Shown here in pieces: positions 5,521 to 26,755 of a stretch of 39,650 bases of DNA; within the stretch, counting starts at the first letter, position 1, and the number at the start of each line of letters is the position of its first letter. The notes under the pieces are model-generated. The model had not been told where the DNA came from. It did no database searches and saw nothing but the letters and a program-made list of their open reading frames with translations. This stretch comes from a virus (lineage: Duplodnaviria; Caudoviricetes), in IMG/VR virus record IMGVR_UViG_3300012910_000001, positions 1 to 39,650 of that record. One strand, given 5' to 3'. Both the position numbers and the translations under genes were made by a program.

Positions 5521-5849
5521 ATACAAACAAAATCTAGTTTATATATTTTCTTTTAATTTTAGCTTTATCAGCTGTAAGATCCATTCTTGTAATGTTACTC
5601 CAGATTTATAAGCTTCGGATTTAGCTGAAGAATGAACTTCTTTTGGAAGACGTACTGAACAGAACTTCTTATTCTCTTTCATATTTTTCCTAAAAATAAA
5701 AAACTATCGCTAAAGTGCACAATATTATACAAAATTAAAAGCGCACAAATCATACAAACTTATTAAAAAATATGCTGGAGCATTAATATAAGTCTAGGTA
5801 ATTTTGAGTTTGCGGGTAAGTAATTAAAATTTTAAAAATGGAGTCTCTT

Positions 5850-6542
5850 ATGTGCAAAGAAGATATGAATAGAAAAGATTGTTGCTGCTGTATTCAAGGA
5901 CCTCAAGGCCCTGCTGGATTACAAGGAGAACAAGGTATTCAAGGCGTTCCAGGAGCTCAAGGTATCATGGGTCCAGCTGGCGCTCAAGGAGTTCAAGGCT
6001 TACAAGGTCCTCCAGGAATTTGTAGACCAGAAGATTGTCAAGGCGGAGAAAATGGATCTGCTTGTGAATCCTACGCTAACCTATGGGCACAACCGCCTCA
6101 AATTTTAGGTGCCAATGGTGCAGCTAATGACGCAGTATTGTTTCAATTCCAAAATGCTGTTGTCGCAGCTGATTTTGATCTTTCTATGATGGCTATTGAT
6201 GGATCGGTTAAATTCTTAAAATCTGGTATTTACCGTATTAACTATGGCGCAGAAGCAAAAGTTTCTATGCCAATCCCTACTCCAGTGCCAAGCTTTAGTT
6301 TTGGTCTATGGAAAAATGCAGTCCTCATTCCTGGATCTACAATCTCAGGCTATACACAAGCCCCAGCAGATGACACTGTCCAAATCACTGGAGAAGTCAT
6401 AATAAATATTGTTGCTAATGACGTTATCAAGTTGCGCAATGCATCTTCTAATGGCGTTGATATGACTCCAAATACAGTTGGAATTTCATTCCCTGTAACA
6501 GTTGCTACACTTAATATAAATTGTCTTAAATCTTTAGCTTAA
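5850..6542 (+). CDS. Collagen-like protein with BclA/C1q-like C-terminal beta domain
   Basis: Run of Gly-X-Y triplets flanked by Cys clusters; C-terminal F...GIY.I.Y...ANDVIKLRN pattern. Start at 5838 or 5850 (GGAG RBS favours 5850). Confidence 0.75.
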
Positions 6543-7971: not shown

Positions 7972-9436
7972 AAATCCTCTTTCTGATCCATATTGGAGAA
8001 TAAATAATCTTTATCAGATCGTAAATAAGAGTGGTCGCAAGATCACTTTTAATCTTAATTGGGCACAAGAGGAGTTGTATCGCAATATGTGGTATTGCAA
8101 TGTAATTCTTAAGGCTAGGCAACTTGGAATAAGTACTTTTGTCTGTATGCTTTTTCTTGATAGATGTTTGTTTAATCCCAATCAATCAGCTGGAATTATT
8201 GCACATACTCTTGAAGATGCTCAGCAGATGTTTCGGCGTGTTAAAGTAGCATATGATAGTCTTCCTAACGAAATTAAATCTGTAATATCGGCTGATAATG
8301 ATACATCGCAAATGCTTAAATTCTCCAATGGATCAAGTCTTAGGGTCGGAACTTCATTACGTTCAAGTACCTTTCAATATCTTCACATATCTGAGTTCGG
8401 TAAAATATGTGCAAAGTTCCCAGACAAAGCCCAGGAAATTGTTACCGGATCACTTAACACAGTCGAATCCGGCCAATATATCTTTATCGAATCTACTGCT
8501 GAAGGTAGGTCTGGTTACTTCTATGACATTTGCAAGCATGCGGAAAATCAGAAGAAATCCAAGGTTGAGCTTAGTAAATTGGACTTTAGATTTAACTTTT
8601 TCCCTTGGTGGAAAGAACCTTCATACCGCATTGGAAATTCATTTCCTATTAACCAAGAAATGCAAACGTATTTTGCTCACTTGAAATCTTTAGGCATTGA
8701 AATAGATCAAGAACAACAAGCTTGGTACATAGCTAAAGAAGTGATGCAGAAAGAGGATATGCGAAGAGAGTATCCTTCTACTCCTGAAGAAAGCTGGGAA
8801 GTTTCTAATGAGGGATTGTATTATGGAAAATACATGACATTAGTTAGGGCAGAAAAACGTATTGGATTTGTTCCTTATGATGAACAATTACCCGTTCATA
8901 CAGCTTGGGATCTTGGTTATAACGATTCAAATGCAATTTGGTATTTCCAGATTCATAAAAAAGAAATAAGACTTATCGATTACGATGAAGGAAGCGGAGA
9001 ATCTCTTTCCCATTGGCTTGGTGTTCTTAAATCAAAACCGTATGTGTATGGGAAACATATCGCTCCTCACGACATCATGGTTCATGAGTATAGTTCGGGA
9101 ATGACGAGACAAGCAGCAGCTCGTAAAATGGGATTCAATTTCTTGCCTGCTCAAAAGGTAGAAATAATCCCTGGAATTGATGCGGTTAGAAATATGTTAA
9201 ATCGATGCTGGTTTGATGAAAAGAAGTGCGCTAAAGGATTGAAGGCAATAGATAACTACAAGAAAGATTGGGACGATAGAAACGTTTGTTGGAGATCTAA
9301 ACCATTGCACAATTGGTCAAGTCATGGAGCAGATGCCCTACGCACTCTTGCTACTGGATTGAATTATGTAGAGGAAAAAAATTCAGTCACTAGTCATAAT
9401 CCTATGCAATACATACAAAATAGGTTCGCTGGATGA
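7955..9436 (+). CDS. terL: Terminase large subunit
   Basis: ILKARQLGIST (Walker A), LHISE (Walker B), IESTA coupling motif, WDLG and SHGADA nuclease motifs. Confidence 0.95.
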   Translation: MMTKNENPLSDPYWRINNLYQIVNKSGRKITFNLNWAQEELYRNMWYCNVILKARQLGISTFVCMLFLDRCLFNPNQSAGIIAHTLEDAQQMFRRVKVAYDSLPNEIKSVISADNDTSQMLKFSNGSSLRVGTSLRSSTFQYLHISEFGKICAKFPDKAQEIVTGSLNTVESGQYIFIESTAEGRSGYFYDICKHAENQKKSKVELSKLDFRFNFFPWWKEPSYRIGNSFPINQEMQTYFAHLKSLGIEIDQEQQAWYIAKEVMQKEDMRREYPSTPEESWEVSNEGLYYGKYMTLVRAEKRIGFVPYDEQLPVHTAWDLGYNDSNAIWYFQIHKKEIRLIDYDEGSGESLSHWLGVLKSKPYVYGKHIAPHDIMVHEYSSGMTRQAAARKMGFNFLPAQKVEIIPGIDAVRNMLNRCWFDEKKCAKGLKAIDNYKKDWDDRNVCWRSKPLHNWSSHGADALRTLATGLNYVEEKNSVTSHNPMQYIQNRFAG

Positions 9437-10026
9437 ACTGCAACTTTTGCAATCAAGTAATTATAAATCCTACTAAGAGAAAATTGTATGATTTTAAAAG
9501 AAGAGGGAAAATATATTGCTCTTCAGAATGTGTAAAAATAAAAAAATCACTTTCTTCTAGAGAAAGAATGATAAAAATGAATAAAGAATATGCGAGTGAT
9601 AGAATGAAGAAAAACAACCCTTCATTTAATAAAGAAATAATTAAAAAAGGAATACTCACAAAGATAAAAAAAGGTTCTTTTCATAAAACTCCCATTATTC
9701 AAGGGGGTAATGGTAAAAAAACACCAATTCCCGTTCAGATGCTTAACGATCGTTTAAATTGGACCTTAAGATATATTTTTCGAACTGGCGTGCATGGTTT
9801 TTATCCTACGCATTATAAACTAGAAATAGCTAATCAAGAGAAACAGATATGCATAGAGATAGATGGAAATAGCTCATATTCTCGAAAAGATGAAGCGAAG
9901 AAAAAAGAAGAATATTTAGAGTCAAAAGGATGGATTACCTTGAGATTCAAAAATAAAGATATTTTGAAAAATCTTGAATCTTGCGTTCAGACTTGTTTAA
10001 AAATATATGAAGAAAGAAGAATGTAA
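9433..10026 (+). CDS. Free-standing endonuclease-like protein (basic DNA-binding N-terminus plus DUF559/Vsr-like domain), possibly inactive
   Basis: CxxC...YCS..C, RMKKNNP, and ICIEIDG...YLESKGW..LRF motifs. Confidence 0.65.
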   Translation: MNCNFCNQVIINPTKRKLYDFKRRGKIYCSSECVKIKKSLSSRERMIKMNKEYASDRMKKNNPSFNKEIIKKGILTKIKKGSFHKTPIIQGGNGKKTPIPVQMLNDRLNWTLRYIFRTGVHGFYPTHYKLEIANQEKQICIEIDGNSSYSRKDEAKKKEEYLESKGWITLRFKNKDILKNLESCVQTCLKIYEERRM

Positions 10027-11341: not shown

Positions 11342-13462
11342 ATTTCTTATAATATTGCGCCTTTTAATAATAACATAGAGCCTAGCCAAGGAAATGTTAA
11401 GCAATGGCTAGATAGTCTTTACACTAGATATCAGCCCCTCGAGCAAAGCCGCTGGAATCAGGCCAACATAGACACATTATTCTATGCTGGCGAGCAATCC
11501 TTTGTTAATCGGTATTTTAATTTTAATAATACCTCTTCATTCAATAAATATTATTTCAACTTAGTGCAACAGCCCATAAATATGGTGACTGGGTACGAAA
11601 GACAACATCGTAAAAACTTTAGCTATATTCCTACTGAGGGAGCAGATGCCCTTACTACCGATCAATATAATAAGTTAATCACTCATGTTGCCAATGCTGG
11701 ATCTATACATGAACAGAAATCAAAAGCTAAAGAATTAGCCGCTATATCTGGAATGGTACTAGCTCAGCCTTATCTTGATTATACTGGAGATGATCAAGCG
11801 CAAGGGGAATTAAAGGTTAAGATTTGGGAATATAATAGTTTCTTAGTTGATCCTTATTTTAGATCTCCCGATATGTCAGACGCTCAATTTGTGTGGTGTC
11901 AGGAATATATAAGCAAGCAAGAGGCAGAAGCAAGATTTCCAGGTAAGACTAATATGATTAGTCCAATGTCAGGTAGCCCTCAAAGATACGGGTCGTTTTA
12001 CTTTTTGCCAGAAAATTACAACATGGCTCGAAACGATCTGATGGTCTTATCCTATGTATGGTATAAATGGCGTAGAAAGAAAAAACGTTTATATAGCCGA
12101 AAACGTAATCAATTCTTTGATTATGCCGGGGGTGATGGGCAACTTGAGGCAATCCTTTACAACATTCCAGATATGCAACCTGTAACTGTTGAAACTCCAT
12201 GCTGGAAGCTTGCCACCGTTTTAAATGATCAATTGATGTTTCAAGGAGAAAATCCACTTGGGTTTGATTCTTGTCCTTTCATTCCATACTTTTGGAATTA
12301 TGATCCTCATATTAATTATTATGATCTTAGAGTTAGATCGCTAGTATACCCCATGAGATCTCCTCAGTTCTTAGCTAATCATAAGATAATCAATAATAAT
12401 GACATTGCAGCAGCTACCATTAATGCTGGATGGAAACGTAAGATTGGTGCAGTAGCTAATGAAGACAATCTCAAGAAATCAGGTCAAGGTTGGGATGTAA
12501 TCATTAATGAAGGATATGAACTAACAGACTGTGAGAAAATCATTCCAAGTGCTGTGCCTGAAAGTGATTTAGCATTAGCCCAACAAATGATAGATCTTAT
12601 TTACAATACTTCAGGTATTAATTTAGAGAATTGGTCCGGACAAGATGATAAACAAATAAGTAGCCTTACAATGCTTATGAAGCAAGCTGCTAATCTAATG
12701 GTATTTCAAAAATACTTTGATCAGTGGGACTTTTCAGATAGATTATTAGGAGATAAACTTCTTCAAATCCCTCTTAACAATTGGAATGCTGAAAAAGTTG
12801 GCCTTTATATAGGAGAAGAGCCATCCCCTTATTTCTACTCTAAAGTATTTTCTAAGTATCAAGTCTTAGTAGAAGAATCAGATTTAACACCCACTCAGCA
12901 AAACTTACAAGCTCAGCAGATGTTTGAGGTTAATGAAAGATTTGGCCGCGAAGTGTTCACACCATCTCAAATTGTTCCGAAGCTTAACATTTCTGGAAAA
13001 GCTGAGATTATTCAAATCATGCAGCAACAAGAACAACAACAAGCAGCTATGCAAAATGAGATGCAGAATACACAACATGCGTTTGAGCATGCTAAGATGC
13101 AAGAGTTGATGAGTAAAGCTGCTGCGAACATAGCCAGAGCACGTGAAGATCATAGCCGTTCTGAAAGTAACCTGGGACTCTACGAAGAGAGATTGTCGAT
13201 GATCGAGCGTAATAGGGCTCTTACTCTTAAAGAGAAACAAGCAGCTTTAAGAGAACTTTTAGAAAGCATGCAATTGTTTGGAAAAATGGAAACGGAATAT
13301 GCAGAAAATAAACTAAATATCGATGCCTATAATATTCGATCAGAGGAAGAATTAGAAAAACAAGATGTTCATAGGCGAACTGAAGCTAATAAATTCCTAG
13401 AGCAAATAATGGGATCTGTAGGTATGAATAATCCTTCCCAACAACAAGAACAAATGGTATAA
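11342..13462 (+). CDS. Portal protein (podovirus/P22-like), probable ATT start
   Basis: Large gene between terL and the scaffold/capsid genes, with a Q-rich coiled-coil C-terminus. The frame is open from 11315 and GGAGG lies 5 nt before ATT 11342. The ORF track starts it late, at 11564. Confidence 0.8.
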   Translation: MSYNIAPFNNNIEPSQGNVKQWLDSLYTRYQPLEQSRWNQANIDTLFYAGEQSFVNRYFNFNNTSSFNKYYFNLVQQPINMVTGYERQHRKNFSYIPTEGADALTTDQYNKLITHVANAGSIHEQKSKAKELAAISGMVLAQPYLDYTGDDQAQGELKVKIWEYNSFLVDPYFRSPDMSDAQFVWCQEYISKQEAEARFPGKTNMISPMSGSPQRYGSFYFLPENYNMARNDLMVLSYVWYKWRRKKKRLYSRKRNQFFDYAGGDGQLEAILYNIPDMQPVTVETPCWKLATVLNDQLMFQGENPLGFDSCPFIPYFWNYDPHINYYDLRVRSLVYPMRSPQFLANHKIINNNDIAAATINAGWKRKIGAVANEDNLKKSGQGWDVIINEGYELTDCEKIIPSAVPESDLALAQQMIDLIYNTSGINLENWSGQDDKQISSLTMLMKQAANLMVFQKYFDQWDFSDRLLGDKLLQIPLNNWNAEKVGLYIGEEPSPYFYSKVFSKYQVLVEESDLTPTQQNLQAQQMFEVNERFGREVFTPSQIVPKLNISGKAEIIQIMQQQEQQQAAMQNEMQNTQHAFEHAKMQELMSKAAANIARAREDHSRSESNLGLYEERLSMIERNRALTLKEKQAALRELLESMQLFGKMETEYAENKLNIDAYNIRSEEELEKQDVHRRTEANKFLEQIMGSVGMNNPSQQQEQMV

Positions 13463-15849: not shown

Positions 15850-18131
15850 ATGAGTATAACTACTACGTCTAACCTCGGTCCTATGATTTTGCAATCACTA
15901 GCTCCGGCGATGTTATACGTTCCTACGCCCACAATGAATTATATTACTATCTGCGACAAAGTTTCTATGCCAGCAAATGGCGGAACTACTTGCAGATTTA
16001 TGCGCCCACGTGCGTTAACACCACCTACTGTCCAATTGGGCAATTCCGGAATTGATCCTCCGGCCCAAGTGCCTCAGAGGGATATTATAGACGCGCAAAT
16101 GGCGTTTTTCGGTGAATTGGCTCTTGCAGCCTAACCAGTGCCGAAACTATTGATGATCCTGGGTTACCTGTTCATAAGGGATTACCCAGTAGACTGGATG
16201 TATCATCAATGAGCAGGTTTTTGAAGAATGGCCTGCTATAAATCTGCTCTAATTGACTTGGAACCCCTCATTACCTGAGGGCAACAAGGGGCAAGTGTTT
16301 AATTGTTATTAAAAGTATGGTTTCTACAGTGAAGTTTTTTAAGTTGATCCATCAAACTCAATCGTTGATCAATAATTTCTTGCGATATGCGTTGTACACC
16401 TTGTTTTCCTGGCTGATACTCGGAACAAAAATATGTACTTCTCATTTTCAAAAGAATCATTGCTTGTTCCTTCTTGATAACAAGATAAGGAATCATGAGT
16501 TCACAAAGATGGGTCAAGCAATCACCTGTGCATTTCCAACTATAGACTGGACCTTTACAATTTATAGCGCGTTGTTTAGGCGTATATTCGCTTTTCCAAC
16601 CGCCAAAATTAGTATAAAGCCAATCTGTGAGGCATTTATCAGTTGTAGTAATACCTATAATGGTTTGAAAAAAACCTGTTCCTCGGATTTTATCTTTATT
16701 ACCATAATTTCCGATAAACAGAGTTCCTTCGCCATCAATAATGCCAGCAAGATATGCAATTTGGCCCACTGTGTAATCAACTCGTGTATATTTACTTTTC
16801 GACATAAAAACTCCTATGTTTAATGTCAGTGTAATTCTACATGATTAACAATTAAATGTACAGCCTGAACGACTAAGGCGAGTGGACACAGTAATGTGAA
16901 GCGATAGTCTGATCTGCAACTATATACGAAATTGCAGAGACATACAGAAATGATATGTCCTCACAATAACATGTGGAGTAACAAAAGTGTATACTTCAGG
17001 ATCAAGAAGGTGTTTTAGCTTGGGTATCTGAACGCTTGGCTGCTTAAGCTACGGCCAAGAGTCTTGACGATGAAATGGTAGCAATGCGTCAAGCCGAGGA
17101 TTGAGATTAAGTCCTCGATAAACTGAACCTGATTGACTTGGAAGGCTAAGGTTTATATAAACTATGCCGACAAGGGGCAAGATGATGAAAATAGAGTTTA
17201 CTAATTTTAACTGTGTAGAATGTGGTGAAGAAAGCCCGTTCGCAGTTATGAAAGTTCCATTTAAATGCAAATGCAAATGCGGATTTGCAACATTGGATAA
17301 AAAACTGTTTAAGGGAAGTGAATACCCCGATAGTTTGAAGAAATTCTATGATAAGTTTAATCAGCCTGAGAGACTGAGTGGTTTAGAGTCAGAAATGACT
17401 ATGCGACAGTCCGAACCAGACAACGAAAGGTCTGGAGTTTAGTAGAAATGCTAAACCGCCAATAATTGACCGAAAAATAGACCGCGGTCATTTAATGGTC
17501 ATAAAGTAACAGAGTGTTAATTCTCAGAGACTACATTGTATCTGCTGCTTCGCAAATTAATGCTGGTGGTGGGTCAAATGGCTTTAATCCAACAAACTTA
17601 GGTTTGACGGACTTTAGCCTTGTAGCAACGACTCTTGATACTAACAATGCCTATAAGTTCATGTCAGGTATTGAAGGTATGGATCGTTTTGGTACAGGCC
17701 CTATAAGAAGCGCATATTTCATGCTAAGCTCAACAGAGCTTCAGTCTGATTTTGATGCTTTAGTTGGTCAAGGTGTATTAAACAACTGGAACTATCCGTC
17801 CAATGCGTCAGCATTGCCATCGGAATGGGGCTCAGTTTATAATTTACGTATTTTAACAAGCTCTGAGGCTCCAGTAGCACGTAATGCTGCTATTAATAAC
17901 CTTGGTCAGTTGAATGACGTTTATTACAACACCGTTTTAGGAAAGCAAGCGATTACGCATATCAAGCAAGATGGTTATTCCATGAACTTGATTTATCGTG
18001 ATCCTTACTATTCAGGCATGTTAGCTCAAAATGCGACTTTAGCGGTTAAATTCGCTCAAGCACAAGCGCTGACACAAGATACGGCTATCCGTAATCTTTT
18101 ATCAACACGCTTAAGCAACTTGGGGGTATAA
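15850..18131 (+). CDS. Major capsid protein (N4-gp56-like), 5 exons: 15850-16113, 16193-16218, 16990-17041, 17078-17101, 17517-18131; 326 aa after splicing
   Basis: Joined exons total 981 nt and give one frame: ...AQMAFFG|TGCIINEQV|ILQDQEGVLAWVSERLA|VAMRQAED|LILRDYIV...EWGSVYNLRIL...DPY...ATLAVK. Every junction has exon-U/intron-G ends and an internal guide sequence. Confidence 0.88.
16114..16192 (+). other. Core-less mini-intron 1 (79 nt)
   Basis: IGS CCAGT-G-CCGAAA (16135-16146) is complementary to the ligated junction TTTCGGT|ACTGG. Ends in G; contains an in-frame TAA and breaks the frame. Confidence 0.8.
16219..16989 (+). mobile_element. Group I intron A (771 nt) carrying an antisense LAGLIDADG gene
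   Basis: P1 AGCAGGT/GCCTGCT with U.G; P3 TCTGCTC(16243)/GAGTGGA(16880); P7 GACTA(16871)/TAGTC(16905); terminal G16989; P10 TGAAG/CTTCA. Confidence 0.9.
16299..16805 (-). CDS. Single-motif LAGLIDADG homing endonuclease
   Basis: IAYLAGIIDGEG motif and the typical PYLVIKKEQA C-terminal motif; own AGGAG RBS. Confidence 0.9.
   Translation of the reverse strand: MSKSKYTRVDYTVGQIAYLAGIIDGEGTLFIGNYGNKDKIRGTGFFQTIIGITTTDKCLTDWLYTNFGGWKSEYTPKQRAINCKGPVYSWKCTGDCLTHLCELMIPYLVIKKEQAMILLKMRSTYFCSEYQPGKQGVQRISQEIIDQRLSLMDQLKKLHCRNHTFNNN
17042..17077 (+). other. Core-less mini-intron 2 (36 nt)
   Basis: IGS GCTAC-G-GCCAAG (17048-17059) is complementary to the ligated junction CTTGGCT|GTAGC. Ends in G; in-frame TAA at 17045. 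Confidence 0.8.
17102..17516 (+). mobile_element. Group I intron B (415 nt)
   Basis: P1 CGAGGAT/GTCCTCG; P3 CTGAACC(17123)/GGTTTAG(17380); P7 GACTG(17372)/CAGTC(17407). Shares ATTGACTTGGAA, ACAAGGGGCAAG, CAGCCTGA and GTAACA..AGTG with intron A; terminal G17516. Confidence 0.9.
17182..17442 (+). CDS. Small intron-encoded Cys-rich ORF (zinc-ribbon-like)
   Basis: CVECG...CKCKCG; AAGGGG lies just upstream; the frame runs on into the intron core. Confidence 0.4.
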   Translation: MMKIEFTNFNCVECGEESPFAVMKVPFKCKCKCGFATLDKKLFKGSEYPDSLKKFYDKFNQPERLSGLESEMTMRQSEPDNERSGV

Positions 18132-18132
18132 G

Positions 18133-19266
18133 ATGACTGAATATAATAAAATGGCTAGAGGTAGTTTTACATCTACAGGAATGGCGGAAATTATTAAGTT
18201 GCCGTTCAGGCCTGACTATGTAGAATTTTTTAATTATACCTTGGCTAATACTGCGGCTACATCTCAGAATGTTATTTCTGGAAAATGGCAGTACCCAATG
18301 GCGCAAGGATCTGCTGTAATTCAAGGTTATAATGCTACTCCTGCACTTATCTATGATACAGTGACAACAGGTGGTATTAGTACTTTTTCAGCTGGGCAGA
18401 TGCTTCAGTATGGACCTACATTTGTGGTATCAGATATTACAAAAGCAAATCCTGCTTCTGTAACAACAACCACAAATCACGGTTTAAAGAGTGGAGATGT
18501 GGTTATTCTTGAAGGTTTGTTTGAAACAACAACTACAGGGATGCCTCAAATTAATGGTATTCCTTTCACTGTAACTGTAACAGGTCTCACAACCTTTACA
18601 ATTCCTTGGAATACAAACCAATCTAACTATACTGTTATTAGTGGTGCTGCGACAGGTACACCTAGGATGAAGCAAGTTCTTTATCCGTTCTTGTATTTTC
18701 CTGGTACTACTTTCATTAGTAATATTACACTTGGAACAACTACAACAATCGATACAACAGATGCTCATAATTTTGTCGTAGGACAACAGGTAGCATTCCG
18801 TATTCCATCTCAATGGGGTACAGTTGAATTGAATTCATTACCAAATATTGTTACGCCTGGATCTCCGATCTATGCTTATGTGATTGCGGTAACGGATTAC
18901 AACACTGTAGTTGTTAACTTTGATTCATCTGCATATACAGCATTCAATAGCAATCAAACTGTTGCGAGCGTCCCAGGACTCTCATATCCTCAGATTGTTG
19001 CAGTTGGTGATGTAAACACGGGTGGTGTTCAAGTTTCAGCAAATTCCGCTTTGTATCCACCTCCTTATTTTGTTCCAATTGGAACAACGAGAGTAAATAC
19101 AATCAACGGACCTGCAATTCAAGGTGCATTTGTAAATAATACAAGCCAAGGTTTCATTATTGGAGCTGGTGTAGGCACTGTTCTAACAACAGGAGAACTT
19201 GTTGGAGCAGAAGGAAATGTTATTTATTGGAGAGCCCTCTATCATGATATAGGCATTCCGAACTAG
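18133..19266 (+). CDS. Virion structural protein (possible capsid decoration) with FCCH-like beta domains
   Basis: Directly after the capsid gene; ITKANPASVTTTTNHGL..GDVV..GMPQING pattern. Confidence 0.7.
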   Translation: MTEYNKMARGSFTSTGMAEIIKLPFRPDYVEFFNYTLANTAATSQNVISGKWQYPMAQGSAVIQGYNATPALIYDTVTTGGISTFSAGQMLQYGPTFVVSDITKANPASVTTTTNHGLKSGDVVILEGLFETTTTGMPQINGIPFTVTVTGLTTFTIPWNTNQSNYTVISGAATGTPRMKQVLYPFLYFPGTTFISNITLGTTTTIDTTDAHNFVVGQQVAFRIPSQWGTVELNSLPNIVTPGSPIYAYVIAVTDYNTVVVNFDSSAYTAFNSNQTVASVPGLSYPQIVAVGDVNTGGVQVSANSALYPPPYFVPIGTTRVNTINGPAIQGAFVNNTSQGFIIGAGVGTVLTTGELVGAEGNVIYWRALYHDIGIPN

Positions 19267-20453: not shown

Positions 20454-21893
20454 ATTAATCTTTTAGACGATGTAATCACTTATGTTAGACGGTTAATTAA
20501 AACTCCGTCTAACTCCTCAATAACAGATGAATTGTTGATAGACTATATCAATAGATTTACCATGGAAGTTCAGCTTCGTATTCAGTTATTTGATTTTAAA
20601 ACTAAGTATCAGTTTCAAACTCAGCCTGGTGTCGATCAGTACAACATGCCCTTGTATTCCATACAAACTTCCCCGACAGGAAGTAATCAACAAGTTTATA
20701 TGTATCCCGTTTATCAGGGGTTTGTTGGTCCGGCTTATATCGGAGGAGTACAAGTTCATTTAGAAACTCAGAAAGATAAATTTTTTGCAGTATGGCCTAA
20801 AATTGTGCAACAAAGTTTTGTTGTGGCTCAAGGTGATGGAACAGCAGGCCCATATACATTGCAGATTCCTTTCATAGGACCGCAAACAAACCCTCCAAAT
20901 CCACCATTTAATGCCATTTTAAGAGGTCATGTTGATATTACGGGGATTATATCTACTGGTGTCAATGTAGATCCTCCTTTAGCTACTACGATTAATAATT
21001 TCATTCCTGAGATTCAAACCACAAGCGTGGATTCAGCTGTATATTTTACATCAATTGATGCAACAGGAAGTAATGTAATCGTGGCAGATAGTGGAGAATT
21101 CCTGAATACCAACGTGAATTTGGGATTATTAATGAAACCCGGTAAAGCTCCTTATGGAAATACGGAACTACCTGGAGGATATGGTTCATTAGTAACTATA
21201 ACCGGAATAACACAAGCCGTCCAAGCTGTTATAACGGCAAATAATACATTCATAGTCGGGCAGTTAATAGAGATTAATAATGTATTGGGTATGACTCAGT
21301 TAAACGGTAATACTTATTCTATTGTTAACGTCACTCCCACCACAATAACCATTAATGTAGATTCGACAGCTTTTGGAGCTTATGTTTCAGGTGGAACAAT
21401 ATCTGGTCCAAATTCAGCTTCAACACAACCTAATATGATTAATTATCTTACAGGTGAAGCAAATGTTACATTTCCAACAGCAATACCTGTAGGAAATAAT
21501 ATCAATGCACAATGTTATTTCTTTCAAACAGGATTGCCAAGGGCTGTTTTATTCTACAATAATGTTTTAACCCTACGGAGTCCACCAGCTCAAAGCTATT
21601 TAGTCGAGCTAGATGCTTATTTAACTCCTGCTGCTTATCTTACTTCTGAATCTGCACTTCCTTTTGGTTATATGGCTGAATATTTATCACTTGGAGCAGC
21701 AAGAAAGATACTTTCAGATACAGGAGATGCTGAGCTACTAGCTTTTTATGAACCAAGATTTAGAGAACAAGAAGCATTAGTTCATATACGTAGTCAAAGA
21801 CAATGGACAGCTACAAGAACTCATACGATTTATAGTATGGGACATGGATCTCATTTGAACGGAATTAACAATTTAGGCGGAAGCGCTTACTAG
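20454..21893 (+). CDS. Putative head-tail adaptor / tail tubular protein, probable ATT start
   Basis: The frame extends upstream of the tracked start to ATT 20454 (xNLLDDVITYVRRLIK...), after GGGGTG. Helical N- and C-termini flank beta inserts. Confidence 0.6.
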   Translation: MNLLDDVITYVRRLIKTPSNSSITDELLIDYINRFTMEVQLRIQLFDFKTKYQFQTQPGVDQYNMPLYSIQTSPTGSNQQVYMYPVYQGFVGPAYIGGVQVHLETQKDKFFAVWPKIVQQSFVVAQGDGTAGPYTLQIPFIGPQTNPPNPPFNAILRGHVDITGIISTGVNVDPPLATTINNFIPEIQTTSVDSAVYFTSIDATGSNVIVADSGEFLNTNVNLGLLMKPGKAPYGNTELPGGYGSLVTITGITQAVQAVITANNTFIVGQLIEINNVLGMTQLNGNTYSIVNVTPTTITINVDSTAFGAYVSGGTISGPNSASTQPNMINYLTGEANVTFPTAIPVGNNINAQCYFFQTGLPRAVLFYNNVLTLRSPPAQSYLVELDAYLTPAAYLTSESALPFGYMAEYLSLGAARKILSDTGDAELLAFYEPRFREQEALVHIRSQRQWTATRTHTIYSMGHGSHLNGINNLGGSAY

Positions 21894-21900
21894 GAGGATA

Positions 21901-22491
21901 ATGCCTAATTTTACTTACATAACAGGAATTCCAGCCGCTTCTCATAATCCATCTACTGATCAGCCTGATATGCAAATCAACACCAATTCTATAGATGACA
22001 TCATTGAAGTGGATCACTACAGTTTTAACGATAATAATGGTGGTTATCACAAAAAAGTTTCTTTAGTTAATAATGCTGGCCCTTTTCCTACTCCTGGAGG
22101 TGTTGGTAGTGTTTTATATGGTTCTGGTAATGAGTGGATTTTTACTACTGCTGCACTTGCGGGAGCAGGTATTCAAATGACTTTAGGAACAAAACCTCCA
22201 ATTGCATTGCCTAGAGGAAGCACATTTTTACCAGGAGGACTTCTTTTACAATGGGGAAGTGGAGCAACGGCAGCTGGAGTTTTTAACGACACGTACACAT
22301 ATCCAATGACTACTACTTTTGGGATATTTTCAGGTGTTCAATCAGGAACAGGAACAACTATTACAAATGCATCGATTTTAACAGGTGGACCTCCTCCCTA
22401 TTCTAATGTGTCTGTTATAGCTAAATTTACTAATGGGAGTTTTGTTACTAATGGAACAATAGTATATTGGTTAGCAGTAGGGCAACCTTAA
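21901..22491 (+). CDS. Tail fibre-related protein
   Basis: LPGGLLLQWG...YWLAVG motif common in phage fibre C-terminal domains; AGGAGG RBS. Confidence 0.65.
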   Translation: MPNFTYITGIPAASHNPSTDQPDMQINTNSIDDIIEVDHYSFNDNNGGYHKKVSLVNNAGPFPTPGGVGSVLYGSGNEWIFTTAALAGAGIQMTLGTKPPIALPRGSTFLPGGLLLQWGSGATAAGVFNDTYTYPMTTTFGIFSGVQSGTGTTITNASILTGGPPPYSNVSVIAKFTNGSFVTNGTIVYWLAVGQP

Positions 22492-25400
22492 TGACAACCA
22501 AGCTCATTGTTGGTCCTATAGATAAGGGTTACACCACTAACCGCCTGGCATTCAATATCGACAATGATGCTTTTCCAGTTCTTAAGAATGCTTATCAATG
22601 GCGAGGAAGAATCAAAAGAAAAAGGGGAACTGAATTTCTTAATAGATTAACTCGATATATCAATTCCATTATTTCAGCATATGCAACATCAGTTTCGACT
22701 ATTACCTTAAATGGATCTGGAGAAGGCAATTTAATTACTGGATTTGGCCTACAGACAAATTCTAGCATTGTTCCTGGATCAGTGACAATAACAGCCCCTG
22801 GTCCTACTTTATATACTGATCCCGATATGGACGGTACACTCTCTCCAAGTGGGACTATTAATTACTCAAATGGAGATATAGTTATATTAGCTGAATCTGG
22901 GAATTCTATATCTGTCATATTAAAATACTATCCTACATTGCCTGTTATGGGTCTTGAGGATTTCATTTTAAGAACAGAAGAGTTTCCATTTACCATTGGT
23001 TTTGACACAAGATATGCTTACAATATTTTGCCTGTATTTCCCTATTCGGTTTATGACATAAGTTTTTATAAAAATCCCGCTGTAGATGCGGTCAATCTTC
23101 CTGGATATGTTGCTAAAACAGTATGGACACCTTTAACATGGAATGGACAAGATTATCAGCAGTTTTGGACGACTAATTATGAAGGTGCCTTTTGGGCCAC
23201 TAACGGGGTAGAAGTTCCTTTTGATCCTACTAATGTTGGAATGCAATATAAATTTATTACCGGAATAACGATAGATCAAGCAGGTAATGGAGTTTATGGA
23301 GTGGGAAATGTACCGGCTCTTGCAACATTAACAATAGTGGGTCATGGGTTAGTCGTTGGAGATTTTGTTTTTATAAACGAAGTTTTTTTTGATCCTGTAA
23401 CTGTTACGGGGATTGATGGTATTAATTTTCAAACTGGTTATGTAGTTGTAGTGGTAGATGCCAATACTGTTCAAGTGGAATTTCCTTTTGCCATACTTAC
23501 AGGAATTTACGTTTCAGGTGGGATTGCCCAATATTTAACCAGTAGATCGGATGTTACAAAAGATAACATTCGTTGGTATGATGGAGATCCTACAAATGGC
23601 AGTATATTAGCCCCAGGATTTTCTCTAGGTAAGGGATGGGTTAATTTTATGCCACCTTTGTCTCAATTTGCATTTAGTGTAGGTGATGCGCCTCTTGGTG
23701 TTTATTATTTAGTCGGCGCTAAAATGTTAACTCAATTTAAAGATCGTCTTGTTGTTTTTGGACCTGTGATTCAAACATCAGCAGCAGGGAGCCAGATATA
23801 CCTTGAAGATACAATTATTTATAGCCAAAATGGTACACCTTTTTACACTGCATCTTTTACGGATGATCCAGTATCTGCCAATACTGTTTTCCATCCTATT
23901 TTAGTTCCGGTGAATCAGATTGCATCAGCTCCTTCTTGGTTTGAAGATCAAACGGGATTTGGAGGTTTTATTGATTCAGGACTTGATGAATCGATCAATA
24001 CCATTGGAACTAATGAAGATGTACTTGTTTTAGGATTTGATACCAATCAAGTTAGAATGGTGTATACAGGTAATGACATTGTCCCTTTCAATCTTTTTAT
24101 TGTTAACTCTGAACTTGGAGCCACTAGCACATTTTCAGTAATTAGTATGGACCAGGGGATTTTGACACGAGGAAATCGGGGATATACGATAACGAGTCAA
24201 ACAGCTTCTCAAAGAATTGACTTAGATAATCCCGATCAAGTTTTTGAAGTTGCTAATCAAAATAACGGAACAGAAAGATTTACAGCATCTAGGGATTTCA
24301 TTAATGAATGGGTTTACTTTACCTATCCATCTAATCAAGAAGATGCCACCCAATACAGATTTCCTACAGAAACTTTTCAGTATAATTACCGTGATAATAC
24401 ATGGGCAATATTCAAAGAGAGTTTTACAACTTATGGAGCTTTTAGATTTCAAACAGGATTTACATGGGCAACGGTTGGGTTAGAATATCCTACTTGGTCA
24501 GTTTGGAATGATCCTTGGGATGCTGGAAACTCAACATTGCTCCAACAAACAGTTATTGCAGGAAATCAGCAAGGATTTCTATTTATAAGAGCGGTAGGAA
24601 CAGGAGAAGGGCCATCATTAGCTATACAGAATATAGTTGGAAGTATTGTTACATCACCTGATCACTGCTTAGATAATAATGATTTTATTGTTATTTCAGG
24701 TGTTCTTGGTACGATAGGTCAAGATGTGAATGGTAAGATATTCCAAGTTCAAAATCCTTCTCTCAATTCATTTACTTTAAAACCTTCGATAGTAGGAACT
24801 GGGACATATTTAGGAGGAGGAACAATTACTCGTCTCTATATTCCATTTATTCAAAGTAAGCAATTTCCTGTAGCATGGGCATTGGCTAAGAAAACAAGAA
24901 TTGGAGTTCAGCAATATTTACTTACATTCACTCCTAATGCTCAGATTACTTTATATATCTATCTCAGTACTGCGGATGAGACCCCATTTAATTTTGGTGA
25001 AATTGTTCCTGCGATTGAACCTGAAAATAATGGACTCATATACAGTTCTGTTTTACTGACATGTCCAGAAAGCACGAATCTAGGGCTAACTCCTGCGAAT
25101 ACCAACCTACAACAGCTTAATTTAATTGGGTCGAATGGATCGTCGCAAAATCCACAAAAACAGATCTGGCATAGAATAAATACCTCTCTTATAGGAGATG
25201 TAGTTCAGGTTGGGTTTACTATTTCACCTGAGCAGATGAGTTCGTTTGAATCTGCTGGGCCATCATTTGCAATAACTGGAGCTTCCCAATCTACTTCAGC
25301 TGTTATATTGACTACTGCAAAATTTGGTGAGAATACTATGGTTAAAATCACTGGTGTAATGGGAATGACAGAACTTAACTTCCAAAGTAACCTTTATAAT

Positions 25401-25577
25401 ATTTATAGAGTCATTTCATCAACAGATACCGATGTAACTTTAGAGGTAGATTCAACAGGATTTGATGCCTATGTTTCAGGTGGAACTATTACTCCTGTTG
25501 CAAATAGAAATTCAACTGCTGAGGTTGAACTACACGCTATGATATTAGATATGACGCCTTCAATGATGTTGAGTTAA
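22491..25577 (+). CDS. Large tail protein (nozzle / DNA-stabilisation-like)
   Basis: About 1030 aa, beta-rich, placed between the adaptor and the ejection-type genes; TAATG coupling at 22491. Confidence 0.65.
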   Translation: MTTKLIVGPIDKGYTTNRLAFNIDNDAFPVLKNAYQWRGRIKRKRGTEFLNRLTRYINSIISAYATSVSTITLNGSGEGNLITGFGLQTNSSIVPGSVTITAPGPTLYTDPDMDGTLSPSGTINYSNGDIVILAESGNSISVILKYYPTLPVMGLEDFILRTEEFPFTIGFDTRYAYNILPVFPYSVYDISFYKNPAVDAVNLPGYVAKTVWTPLTWNGQDYQQFWTTNYEGAFWATNGVEVPFDPTNVGMQYKFITGITIDQAGNGVYGVGNVPALATLTIVGHGLVVGDFVFINEVFFDPVTVTGIDGINFQTGYVVVVVDANTVQVEFPFAILTGIYVSGGIAQYLTSRSDVTKDNIRWYDGDPTNGSILAPGFSLGKGWVNFMPPLSQFAFSVGDAPLGVYYLVGAKMLTQFKDRLVVFGPVIQTSAAGSQIYLEDTIIYSQNGTPFYTASFTDDPVSANTVFHPILVPVNQIASAPSWFEDQTGFGGFIDSGLDESINTIGTNEDVLVLGFDTNQVRMVYTGNDIVPFNLFIVNSELGATSTFSVISMDQGILTRGNRGYTITSQTASQRIDLDNPDQVFEVANQNNGTERFTASRDFINEWVYFTYPSNQEDATQYRFPTETFQYNYRDNTWAIFKESFTTYGAFRFQTGFTWATVGLEYPTWSVWNDPWDAGNSTLLQQTVIAGNQQGFLFIRAVGTGEGPSLAIQNIVGSIVTSPDHCLDNNDFIVISGVLGTIGQDVNGKIFQVQNPSLNSFTLKPSIVGTGTYLGGGTITRLYIPFIQSKQFPVAWALAKKTRIGVQQYLLTFTPNAQITLYIYLSTADETPFNFGEIVPAIEPENNGLIYSSVLLTCPESTNLGLTPANTNLQQLNLIGSNGSSQNPQKQIWHRINTSLIGDVVQVGFTISPEQMSSFESAGPSFAITGASQSTSAVILTTAKFGENTMVKITGVMGMTELNFQSNLYNIYRVISSTDTDVTLEVDSTGFDAYVSGGTITPVANRNSTAEVELHAMILDMTPSMMLS

Positions 25578-26050: not shown

Positions 26051-26101
26051 CTATTGAATATAATCGACCCCTTTTTTATAATATCCGAAAAAAGGATATT
26101 G

Positions 26102-26755
26102 ATGAAATCACACCCAAGAAAAGTTTATAGAGAAGGTCAAAGATTTGGAAATCTTATCGCAATTGAATACATTAAGCCAAAAAGTTATCTTTGCCTGTGT
26201 GATTGTGGAAAAAATAAAATAATAAAAACAAGTAACTTAGTATGTAAAAAAACTACTTCTTGCGGATGTCTTAGAGCTGTCAATTCGCAAGATTATCAAG
26301 AAAAATTAAAAGAAAAACTCCTAAAAAATATAAAAATCGATGGTAATGGCTGTTGGATTTGGCAAAAATCTAAACATCGGCAAGGATATGGTAATTTTTG
26401 TTGTAACCGGAAAGTTTTATTGGCTCATAGGGTTTCATGGACTATTTTTAAGGGGAATTTAGATTTAGAGATTCTGGTTTGCCATACATGCGATAATCCC
26501 CCTTGTTGTAATCCAGAACATTTATTTCTAGGAACAGATAAAGATAATTCAATTGATGCTTTTTCAAAGGGAAGAATAAAAAGACATAAAGGAGAAAATC
26601 ATGCACGCTCTAAATTTAAAAATGAAGATATTGAAAACATAAGAAGTTTAAAACGTGAAGGTAAAACACAAAAAGAAATAAGTGAAATGTATTCGGTAAC
26701 AATAAGTGCGATTAAACACATTTTAAAAAAAAGAACATGGATCCATATTCCCTAA
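26102..26755 (+). CDS. Free-standing HNH homing endonuclease
   Basis: GCWIW...GYG...AHRVSW...VCHTCDNPPCCNPEHLFLGT..DN; N-terminal CLCDCG..SCGC; C-terminal HTH. Confidence 0.9.
   Translation: MKSHPRKVYREGQRFGNLIAIEYIKPKSYLCLCDCGKNKIIKTSNLVCKKTTSCGCLRAVNSQDYQEKLKEKLLKNIKIDGNGCWIWQKSKHRQGYGNFCCNRKVLLAHRVSWTIFKGNLDLEILVCHTCDNPPCCNPEHLFLGTDKDNSIDAFSKGRIKRHKGENHARSKFKNEDIENIRSLKREGKTQKEISEMYSVTISAIKHILKKRTWIHIP

Follow-up and report, generated by a model that had tools for sequence, protein, structure and literature searches.

The DNA analyzed here, hereafter the window, is a complete virus record of 39,650 bases with terminal repeats (Caudoviricetes; IMG/VR record IMGVR_UViG_3300012910_000001), and its genes include those for a terminase, a P22-like portal and the major capsid protein. 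The capsid gene, the subject of this report, is split in five pieces, and four excisions (16114-16192, 16219-16989, 17042-17077 and 17102-17516) restore one open frame of 326 residues. Two of the inserts, introns A (771 nucleotides, nt) and B (415 nt), contain group I cores. The other two (79 and 36 nt) are core-less, and a preliminary description had proposed that each is a satellite processed by the group I ribozyme that follows it. Each of the four inserts is preceded by an exon U and has G as its last base. Insertion sites are numbered below by nucleotide of the spliced coding sequence (CDS); P1 and P10 are the helices that a guide forms with the exons, and the tether is a further helix described below. 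The gene is laid out as follows.

15850-16113, plus strand: exon 1 of the major capsid gene, codons 1-88; its last base is the U of the satellite-1 G.U pair.
16114-16192, plus strand: satellite 1, a 79-nt core-less insert at nt264 that ends in G; core score 0.
16193-16218, plus strand: micro-exon 2, 26 nt; P10 partner, with the tether partner at 16202-16211 and the intron A P1 strand at 16212-16218.
16219-16989, plus strand: intron A, a complete group I core by profile matches and covariation; terminal G 16989.
16990-17041, plus strand: exon 3, 52 nt.
17042-17077, plus strand: satellite 2, a 36-nt core-less insert at nt342; stop 17045-17047, guide 17048-17059 (G17053).
17078-17101, plus strand: micro-exon 4, 24 nt; tether partner 17087-17093, intron B P1 strand 17095-17101.
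17102-17516, plus strand: intron B, a complete group I core; guide 17105-17117, P7 17372-17376/17407-17411, terminal G 17516.
17517-18131, plus strand: exon 5, codons 123-326 and stop; a major head protein in PHROG.

Independent spliced alignment returned the same four boundaries, against a reference protein that had been built from these boundaries, and homologs are therefore the real test of them. Residues 89-97 and 115-122, encoded by the two micro-exons, are near-invariant: among 82 distinct homolog proteins from uninterrupted genes, 75-82 share the window residue at each position. Thus, both micro-exons must be retained. Restoration of the capsid frame by removal of 16114-16192 and 17042-17077 along with both long introns, and conservation of the micro-exon peptides, had been put forward in the preliminary description; all of its coordinates hold. 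Retention of satellite 1 or satellite 2 truncates the protein at 94 or 115 residues, respectively. Exon skipping was rejected: loss of micro-exon 2 shifts the frame and loss of micro-exon 4 deletes eight residues. Thirty-six other distinct nt264 inserts and three other nt342 inserts make an assembly artifact implausible. Membership in the N4-gp56 family (TIGR04387) was scored on an uninterrupted homolog that is 97% identical to exon 5 (L001), in place of the spliced product of the window, and gave 71.7 against a cut-off of 60. The capsid protein found no match in the GenBank phage collection and so has no cultured relative. Its matches in binned contigs are spread over unrelated phyla and were not taken as evidence of host.

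A core profile built from 55 short introns of the same family matched the window four times, with expect values (E) of 1e-11 to 1e-18, the four matches being the two halves of each long insert. Elsewhere in the window the profile gave no convincing match, and the short inserts scored 0. Compensatory pairs occur among the 55 introns in what we take, from group I anatomy, to be helices P3, P4, P5, P6, P7, P8 and P9, with P3 crossing P7. A P4-P6 domain and a P3-P7 pseudoknot whose P7 includes a G-C pair are present in both introns A and B. Intron A contributes a P1 strand at 16231-16237, P3 at 16243-16249/16880-16886 and P7 at 16871-16875/16905-16909, and has no P2; lack of P2 is general, the distance from the guanine of the G.U pair to P4 being 23 nt in 140 of 145 cores. 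P1 is 7 base pairs (bp) in both introns and includes the pairs U16218.G16231 (A) and U17101.G17111 (B). P10 is 6 bp in intron B and, as read from the sequence, interrupted in intron A. By anatomy, introns A and B are group I introns, and self-splicing is predicted for both.

The satellites carry the following elements in addition to those listed for satellite 2 above.

16114-16134, plus strand: in-frame read-through tail of satellite 1, Leu-Ala-Ala-stop, an ssrA-like ending for which degradation is predicted.
16135-16146, plus strand: satellite-1 guide; P10 strand 16135-16139, G16140 opposite U16113, P1 strand to 16146.
16148-16157, plus strand: satellite-1 tether strand; 10 bp with 16202-16211, abutting the P1 of intron A, with pair probabilities of 0.73-1.0.
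16159-16189, plus strand: additional hairpin of satellite 1 that the family does not generally share.
17063-17069, plus strand: satellite-2 tether strand, pairing with 17087-17093.

In both satellites an in-frame TAA (16132-16134 and 17045-17047) lies immediately 5' of the guide. Both guides are 12 nt long and form, with their own ligated junction, a P1 of 7 bp including the G.U pair and a P10 of 5 bp; those of satellite 1 have pair probabilities of 0.58-0.97 in the predicted fold. Each guide is unique in the window, where 0.05-0.06 matches per shuffle are expected at one mismatch. The U and G ends, stops, guides and G.U pairs are thus found at every position where they were first described. 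Across the family described below, guides form a P1 of at least 6 bp in 80 of 80 satellites and a P10 of at least 4 bp in 76 of 80. A motif test for the P7 pair that finds 98 of 198 cores found none among 66 short and 15 long satellites, and the term core-less, as originally applied, is borne out by this result together with the profile score of 0. Pairing resembling P9.0 was sought at satellite 3' ends and was not established. Judged from these elements, satellites would act as group I substrates and are not themselves ribozymes of that group. In satellite 1, positions 16167-16176 also show 10-nt complementarity to the partner's own P1 exon strand, a feature unique to that satellite; such pairing could keep the partner splice site closed until the satellite has been processed.

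To place these inserts in a family, we assembled 326 sequences (325 loci and the window) by protein search and by pattern. A capsid match was present in 324; of these, 137 were uninterrupted and the other 187 were passed through a spliced aligner that called inserts from 1 nt. We dropped loci aligned only after residue 10 (including L117 and L156, which have short inserts), two without a capsid match (L212, L222), four chance pattern matches (L330, L332, L333, L335) and a 2-nt insert called close to the L227 start codon and judged to be alignment noise. Two inserts with weak scores were counted as cores, L068 nt296 by sequence inspection and L223 nt182 by score and 5' sequence; the L074 guide was set by hand and the L347 portal satellite was read by eye. 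The capsid survey yielded 198 distinct cores and 81 distinct core-less inserts of 29-987 nt, located at nt264 (37), nt275 (15), nt312 (28) and nt342 (1), with the two satellites of the window counted through its own record (L091). A later scan added three nt342 inserts and one nt264 insert, and one genome (L350) has the two-unit layout of the window. Some 40 distinct insertion sites are used in the capsid gene across the family, and four loci (L140, L236, L350, L352) have five or six inserts per gene.

Satellites depend on a downstream core. Among protein-selected loci, to which this count was confined (231 complete genes, 152 distinct), the next insert was a core in 36 of 36 satellite-bearing distinct genomes, while 11 of the 116 others had a core at nt285-435. 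For all 81 satellites, the next insert was a core in 80, and the remaining core is cut by a contig end. The co-occurrence anticipated in the preliminary description was therefore seen in 36/36 genomes and 81/81 inserts. Cores occur without satellites, but satellites never occur without a downstream core, and the suggestion that a satellite renders the full intron hard to lose fits this one-way dependence. A spacing of 24-26 nt between satellite and core had also been reported; it is correct for the window but is not a family rule, the range being 21-168 nt. At nt264 of L224 lies a full 712-nt intron, and thus an autonomous form exists at a satellite site. The nt360 intron of L054 is a partner-type core, with an immediate stop and no tag (see below), that has no satellite and is probably a case of satellite loss. 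Conserved motifs of the L068 nt296 partner core differ from the family type (profile score 21), and satellites may use more than one core subtype.

The arrangement recurs in a second gene. A search of 50 records for cores outside the capsid gene used a pattern with a sensitivity of about one half; it detected nine, all at the start of the portal gene. Seven of the nine had a 30-55-nt satellite upstream by alignment, an eighth had one by eye, and one stood alone. In L342-L349, satellite-plus-core units occupy four satellite sites within the first 150 nt of the portal gene and show the same tether.

The tether is a helix between satellite and exon. It is formed by 5-12 nt on the 3' side of the guide in each satellite, which are complementary to an exon stretch whose last base lies 7-11 nt upstream of the partner 5' splice site; the exon strand of the tether thus adjoins the partner's P1. 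The pairing tracks the site of the partner: satellites at nt264 pair near nt290, 303, 360, 366 or 432, depending on where their core resides, 26 to 168 nt away. The true partner ranked in the top 5% of positions for 72 of 80 satellites and best among known partner sites for 70 of 80. Pairing of satellite tails with their own exon scored 1491, versus 1232+-31 with exons of relatives at the same site (0 of 20,000 swaps); because the window of 7-11 nt is post hoc and the genomes are related, these rank and swap figures are not clean probabilities. Tails fit their own exon best because of compensatory change at synonymous codon positions. With the rule fixed beforehand, the true partner came first for six of seven portal satellites (the seventh is bulged) and for four of four new capsid satellites. 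In predicted folds, satellite P1, tether and partner P1 each exceeded a probability of 0.5 in 63 of 66 short units. Covariation of this kind suggests that the tether helix names the partner core.

Partner cores themselves cluster on a core tree (15 changes versus 53 for shuffled labels), but insertion sites cluster likewise and the G.U-to-P4 distance is 23 nt in partner and solo cores alike; thus, no partner-specific core feature can be claimed.

A second signature resides in the stop codons. A C-terminus consisting of a hydrophobic residue and Ala-Ala resembles the ssrA tag and is read by ClpXP as a degradation signal. Read-through of both window satellites ends in Leu-Ala-Ala, and across the family the product of a retained satellite ends in Ala-Ala (68) or Val-Ala (7) in 75 of 81 cases, as compared to a shuffled mean of 6.7 and maximum of 14. 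Translation of 21 satellites continues out of frame into the next exon before reaching a stop; the exon codons supply the tag in all 21, and 19 of them use a codon pair seen in only 2 of 137 uninterrupted loci. The satellite of L351 and early portal satellites are untagged. The tag is also present in 76 of 84 solo cores beyond nt182, in contrast to 6 of 80 partner cores, and in 2 of 34 early cores. This contrast between solo and partner cores indicates that ribosomes meet the satellite first and seldom a retained partner. Together the counts argue that the read-through product is under selection for an Ala-Ala-stop end, and a truncated capsid product ending in hydrophobic-Ala-Ala carries a predicted protease tag. 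In-frame stops in the unspliced T4 td intron are standard, and the ssrA tag is mentioned there as an engineering proposal in the available text (PMC8565351).

Collectively, dependence, tether and guide make it probable that satellites are core-less group I remnants and that the complete group I intron following each one excises it in cis. The proposal that one core serves two sets of splice sites is thereby strengthened with respect to dependence and micro-exon conservation; catalysis by the neighbor is the part that we infer. Missing from that proposal were the tether, the tagged stop and the long core-less inserts with an endonuclease gene. In the mechanism we propose, satellite P1 and partner P1 would hang from almost the same point, a short A-rich linker leading into P3 of a core that has no P2. 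The folded core would first dock the satellite P1, and free guanosine would cleave. The terminal G of the satellite would then enter the P7 site while P10 aligns the micro-exon for ligation. Finally, the partner P1 would dock and the core splice itself out. Satellite-first order is proposed since the partner P1 has to be in place for the tether. Before splicing, ribosomes would stop at the satellite stop codon and release a truncated capsid protein ending in hydrophobic-Ala-Ala. Precedent for the chemistry comes from engineered group I ribozymes, which are described as excising segments of 1-100 nt from other RNAs in vitro and in Escherichia coli in the portions of these reports available (PMC2532722, PMC6155759, PMC4094466).

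Several points weigh against this interpretation. It is built on sequence comparison and predicted folds. The cores were called by a profile built from the family itself, and a scan of the window with Rfam 15 gave no group I match at E<=1 and detected neither core. The aligner favors U/G ends, and the presence of such ends in 81 of 81 satellites is thus partly built in. The tether window (-7 to -11) was set post hoc on related genomes, and 10 of 80 satellites fail the best-site test. Two nt264 satellites with an nt296 partner pair at -14; their partners carry an ORF (open reading frame)-bearing segment between P1 and P3. In engineered excisions the guide comes from the ribozyme and not from the substrate. 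Lastly, untagged partner cores fit a fast second step but also a partner-first order.

Partner-first order leads to the strongest of the rivals, in which the partner, or any intron, self-splices first and the free ribozyme then binds satellite P1 in trans, with the tether only aiding folding. Partner cores with the tag in only 6 of 80 cases look as if a transcript lacking the satellite but retaining the core hardly exists, and excision in trans works in vitro and in E. coli, according to the part of one report available (PMC6155759). However, each tether lies beside the P1 of a given downstream core and differs according to where that core is inserted, no satellite has only upstream cores, and a released core carries no tether. 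We consider this route unlikely. A relay, in which the terminal G of the excised satellite replaces free guanosine in attacking the partner 5' splice site and a satellite-core fusion RNA is released, would couple both excisions and explain tag loss in partner cores; moreover, a 3'-terminal G is the nucleophile in trans excision as outlined in the accessible text (PMC2532722). Yet a pre-folded core accounts for the same pattern and the tag is kept in 6 of 80 partner cores, leaving the relay with very little probability.

Splicing by the satellites themselves, or driven by a host factor or maturase, is similarly improbable. The model would be small fungal rDNA introns reported with a P7 of their own: for PaSSU (67 nt), splicing in vitro assisted by flanking RNA has been reported, along with P1, P10 and a helix between intron and 3' exon (PMC3160393). 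Satellites differ in that the P7 motif pair was found in none of either length class, self-sufficient inserts should be able to stand alone and none do, and 22 of 80 satellite-core pairs are without any ORF. Hardly credible as well is the view that the inserts are not spliced at all but are handled by ribosomal bypass or stop read-through, or reflect defective genes or assembly errors: although no spliced copy was found among the loci (a spliced CDS is at best 96.7% identical to an insert-free locus), bypass of the T4 gene 60 type needs matching take-off and landing codons, which 0 of 81 satellites have. Moreover, inserts of every frame phase occur, with lengths between 29 and 987 nt, exon codons covary with both guides and tethers, selection favors an Ala-Ala-stop end on the read-through product, and the window is a complete genome.

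Excision in cis by the downstream core, the reading we favor, also bears on how satellites move. Thirteen long core-less inserts at nt312 with a complete partner each have an ORF of at least 100 residues, and none of their 13 partners has one. Where the satellite is ORF-less, the partner has an ORF in 45 of 67 cases. Two of the long-insert ORFs were scanned; both encode LAGLIDADG proteins and lie within the P1 loop, upstream of the guide. The inserts of 946-987 nt are in L027 (2784-3733), L040, L060, L063, L074, L075, L096, L175, L177, L180, L181, L182, L189 and L210, with the partner core of L189 cut by the contig end. Two shorter nt312 inserts (325 nt in L190 and 93 nt in L178) look like decayed long forms. 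Within introns A and B, two ORFs were noted.

16299-16805, minus strand: antisense LAGLIDADG-like ORF of 168 residues in the intron A P6 region, with the motif seen.
17164-17442, plus strand: 92-residue Cys-rich ORF overlapping intron B; it belongs to no family and may not be a gene.

The antisense ORF matches a Pfam LAGLIDADG protein by BLASTP (E 4e-6) and, weakly, I-MsoI (E 4e-5); it has no Pfam match and its PHROG label is HNH. By these similarities it is likely a homing endonuclease. An open frame also runs along the opposite strand (16317-16823). When the 3' half of the capsid gene was used to build a tree (191 rows), satellite classes were scattered like shuffled labels (35 versus 33 changes for nt264), and near-identical neighbors differed in insert content. 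Satellite and core likely spread together by homing with co-conversion, with the endonuclease supplied by either member; the tree is poorly resolved, so homing and general recombination cannot be told apart on it.

Relatives with a core at nt207 suggest that a single guide can serve a second site. In 11 of 11 distinct genomes with this core, an insert of 1, 2 or 4 nt ending in G follows a U at nt243. A pattern scan for 1-30-nt inserts at nt243 gave 12 matches, all with an nt207 core, and a scan for the nt207 core gave 10 true matches, all on contigs already known to have the nt243 insert. The nt207 guide pairs with the nt243 junction through a P1 of 6-7 bp and a P10 of 4 bp, and its first P10 base fits nt243 in 11 of 11 genomes but its own junction in none. 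Seven genomes (L060, L096, L175, L180, L182, L177 and L181) have inserts of 2 or 4 nt, which are candidate 2-4-nt introns. In the other four (L027, L063, L074 and L178), a single G is added after the Asp81 codon and the Glu95 codon is missing its first G, at nt282; the two sites span about 2714-2755 in L027. In these four, the shifted frame runs into a stop, and mutual differences are synonymous only in the repaired frame. Site nt282 matches the nt207 guide at 6 of 7 positions with a terminal U in the four single-G genomes, and shows no match in the other seven. Excision of G at nt243 followed by re-insertion at nt282 would explain these features as candidate G-transfer RNA editing; re-insertion of an excised segment is the reverse reaction described in the available part of PMC6155759. 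The nt207-nt243 block is probably of one origin, meaning that the four single-G genomes are not independent, and we regard the proposed editing as a lead and not a result. A broader and tentative reading, to which we assign somewhat less than even confidence, is that the group I cores of these phages act as multi-site mRNA processors, accompanied by core-less elements that are mobile through a LAGLIDADG gene in the P1 loop and trade mobility for splicing with an ORF-less core, and by insertion/deletion editing. In the editing part, the nt207 guide would act at a further site, where an insert of 1-4 nt is deleted, and a single G would be moved 39 nt downstream to repair the frame.

Our literature search found no natural group I intron spliced by a neighbor, with most subscription papers outside its coverage. 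Phage group I introns such as those of T4 td and Twort orf142 are well known. Introns A and B resemble ordinary phage late-gene introns in having in-frame stops and a peripheral loop that holds an ORF, and capsid genes with several introns have been described from crAss-like phages; in the available portions of these reports each intron has its own core and no core-less dependent insert is described (PMC11878797, PMC7886860 for both; crAss-like phages, PMC7886860). A term search of the accessible text of a Bastillevirinae survey found no degenerate or trans-spliced intron (PMC11878797). The closest natural counterparts are small inserts in fungal small-subunit ribosomal DNA (SSU rDNA) of Phialophora (PaSSU, 63-75 nt), Arthonia and Porpidia, which are 63-78 nt long overall and are described with P1, P10, an intron-exon helix, a P7 of their own and a terminal U (PMC3160393). 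Like satellites, they are under 100 nt, with a P1 G.U pair, P10, a helix between mid-insert and 3' exon, and most of the core absent (PaSSU). Unlike them, satellites have no P7, end in G and reside in a phage protein gene. The fungal inserts are described as self-splicing with flanking rRNA and no partner, whereas the satellite helix abuts the P1 of a specific downstream ribozyme (PMC3160393).

Trans excision-splicing, trans insertion-splicing and spliceozymes share with the satellite system the removal of a foreign segment by a group I core and ligation of its flanks, but in the parts of the reports available they are laboratory constructs in which the ribozyme holds the guide (PMC2532722, PMC6155759, PMC4094466, PMC11417360). 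In the satellite system the guide and a natural tether are both part of the substrate, in cis, and the core excises itself as well. Tandem introns, twintrons and split group I introns resemble the system in that several modules cooperate at one locus. As described in the available text, twintron modules each have a core or are spliced as one unit, with no retained exon, and split introns rebuild one core for one splice-site pair (PMC8393795); the satellite system has one core, two pairs and a retained exon between them. The 24- and 26-nt exons between modules in the window encode conserved residues, setting the arrangement apart from a twintron or tandem. In euglenoid group III introns and the spliceosome, minimal introns keep splice-site elements while the catalytic domain lies elsewhere, with group II chemistry and trans-acting factors. 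Satellites would be the group I analog with a dedicated cis partner.

Other features of the window genome were noted. The portal frame (11342-13462) is open for about 74 codons 5' of its called GTG start; its likely start is an ATT after a GGAGG site, and homologs have other non-ATG codons there. Free-standing nuclease-like genes lie after the terminase (9433-10026, DUF559) and among late genes (26054-26755, HNH). An E1_FCCH-like domain, unusual for phage annotation, exceeds the Pfam cut-off in three late proteins (18133-19266, 20532-21893 and 22467-25577). The product of 5838-6542, among the early genes, has collagen repeats and a weak BclA_C-like end.

The standard view of group I introns is one ribozyme per splice-site pair. 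If the catalysis we infer holds, satellites are a new kind of dependent intron. They would provide, in group I chemistry, a living instance of catalyst and intron having parted, a step invoked to explain how spliceosomal and group III introns arose. Satellites would also show a route by which a selfish intron becomes hard to lose, and how an endonuclease gene can be housed in an essential gene without a ribozyme of its own. The tether rule may serve as a design principle for ribozymes that remove chosen segments of mRNA. In this phage group itself, ORF and Rfam annotation would miscall the capsid and portal genes.

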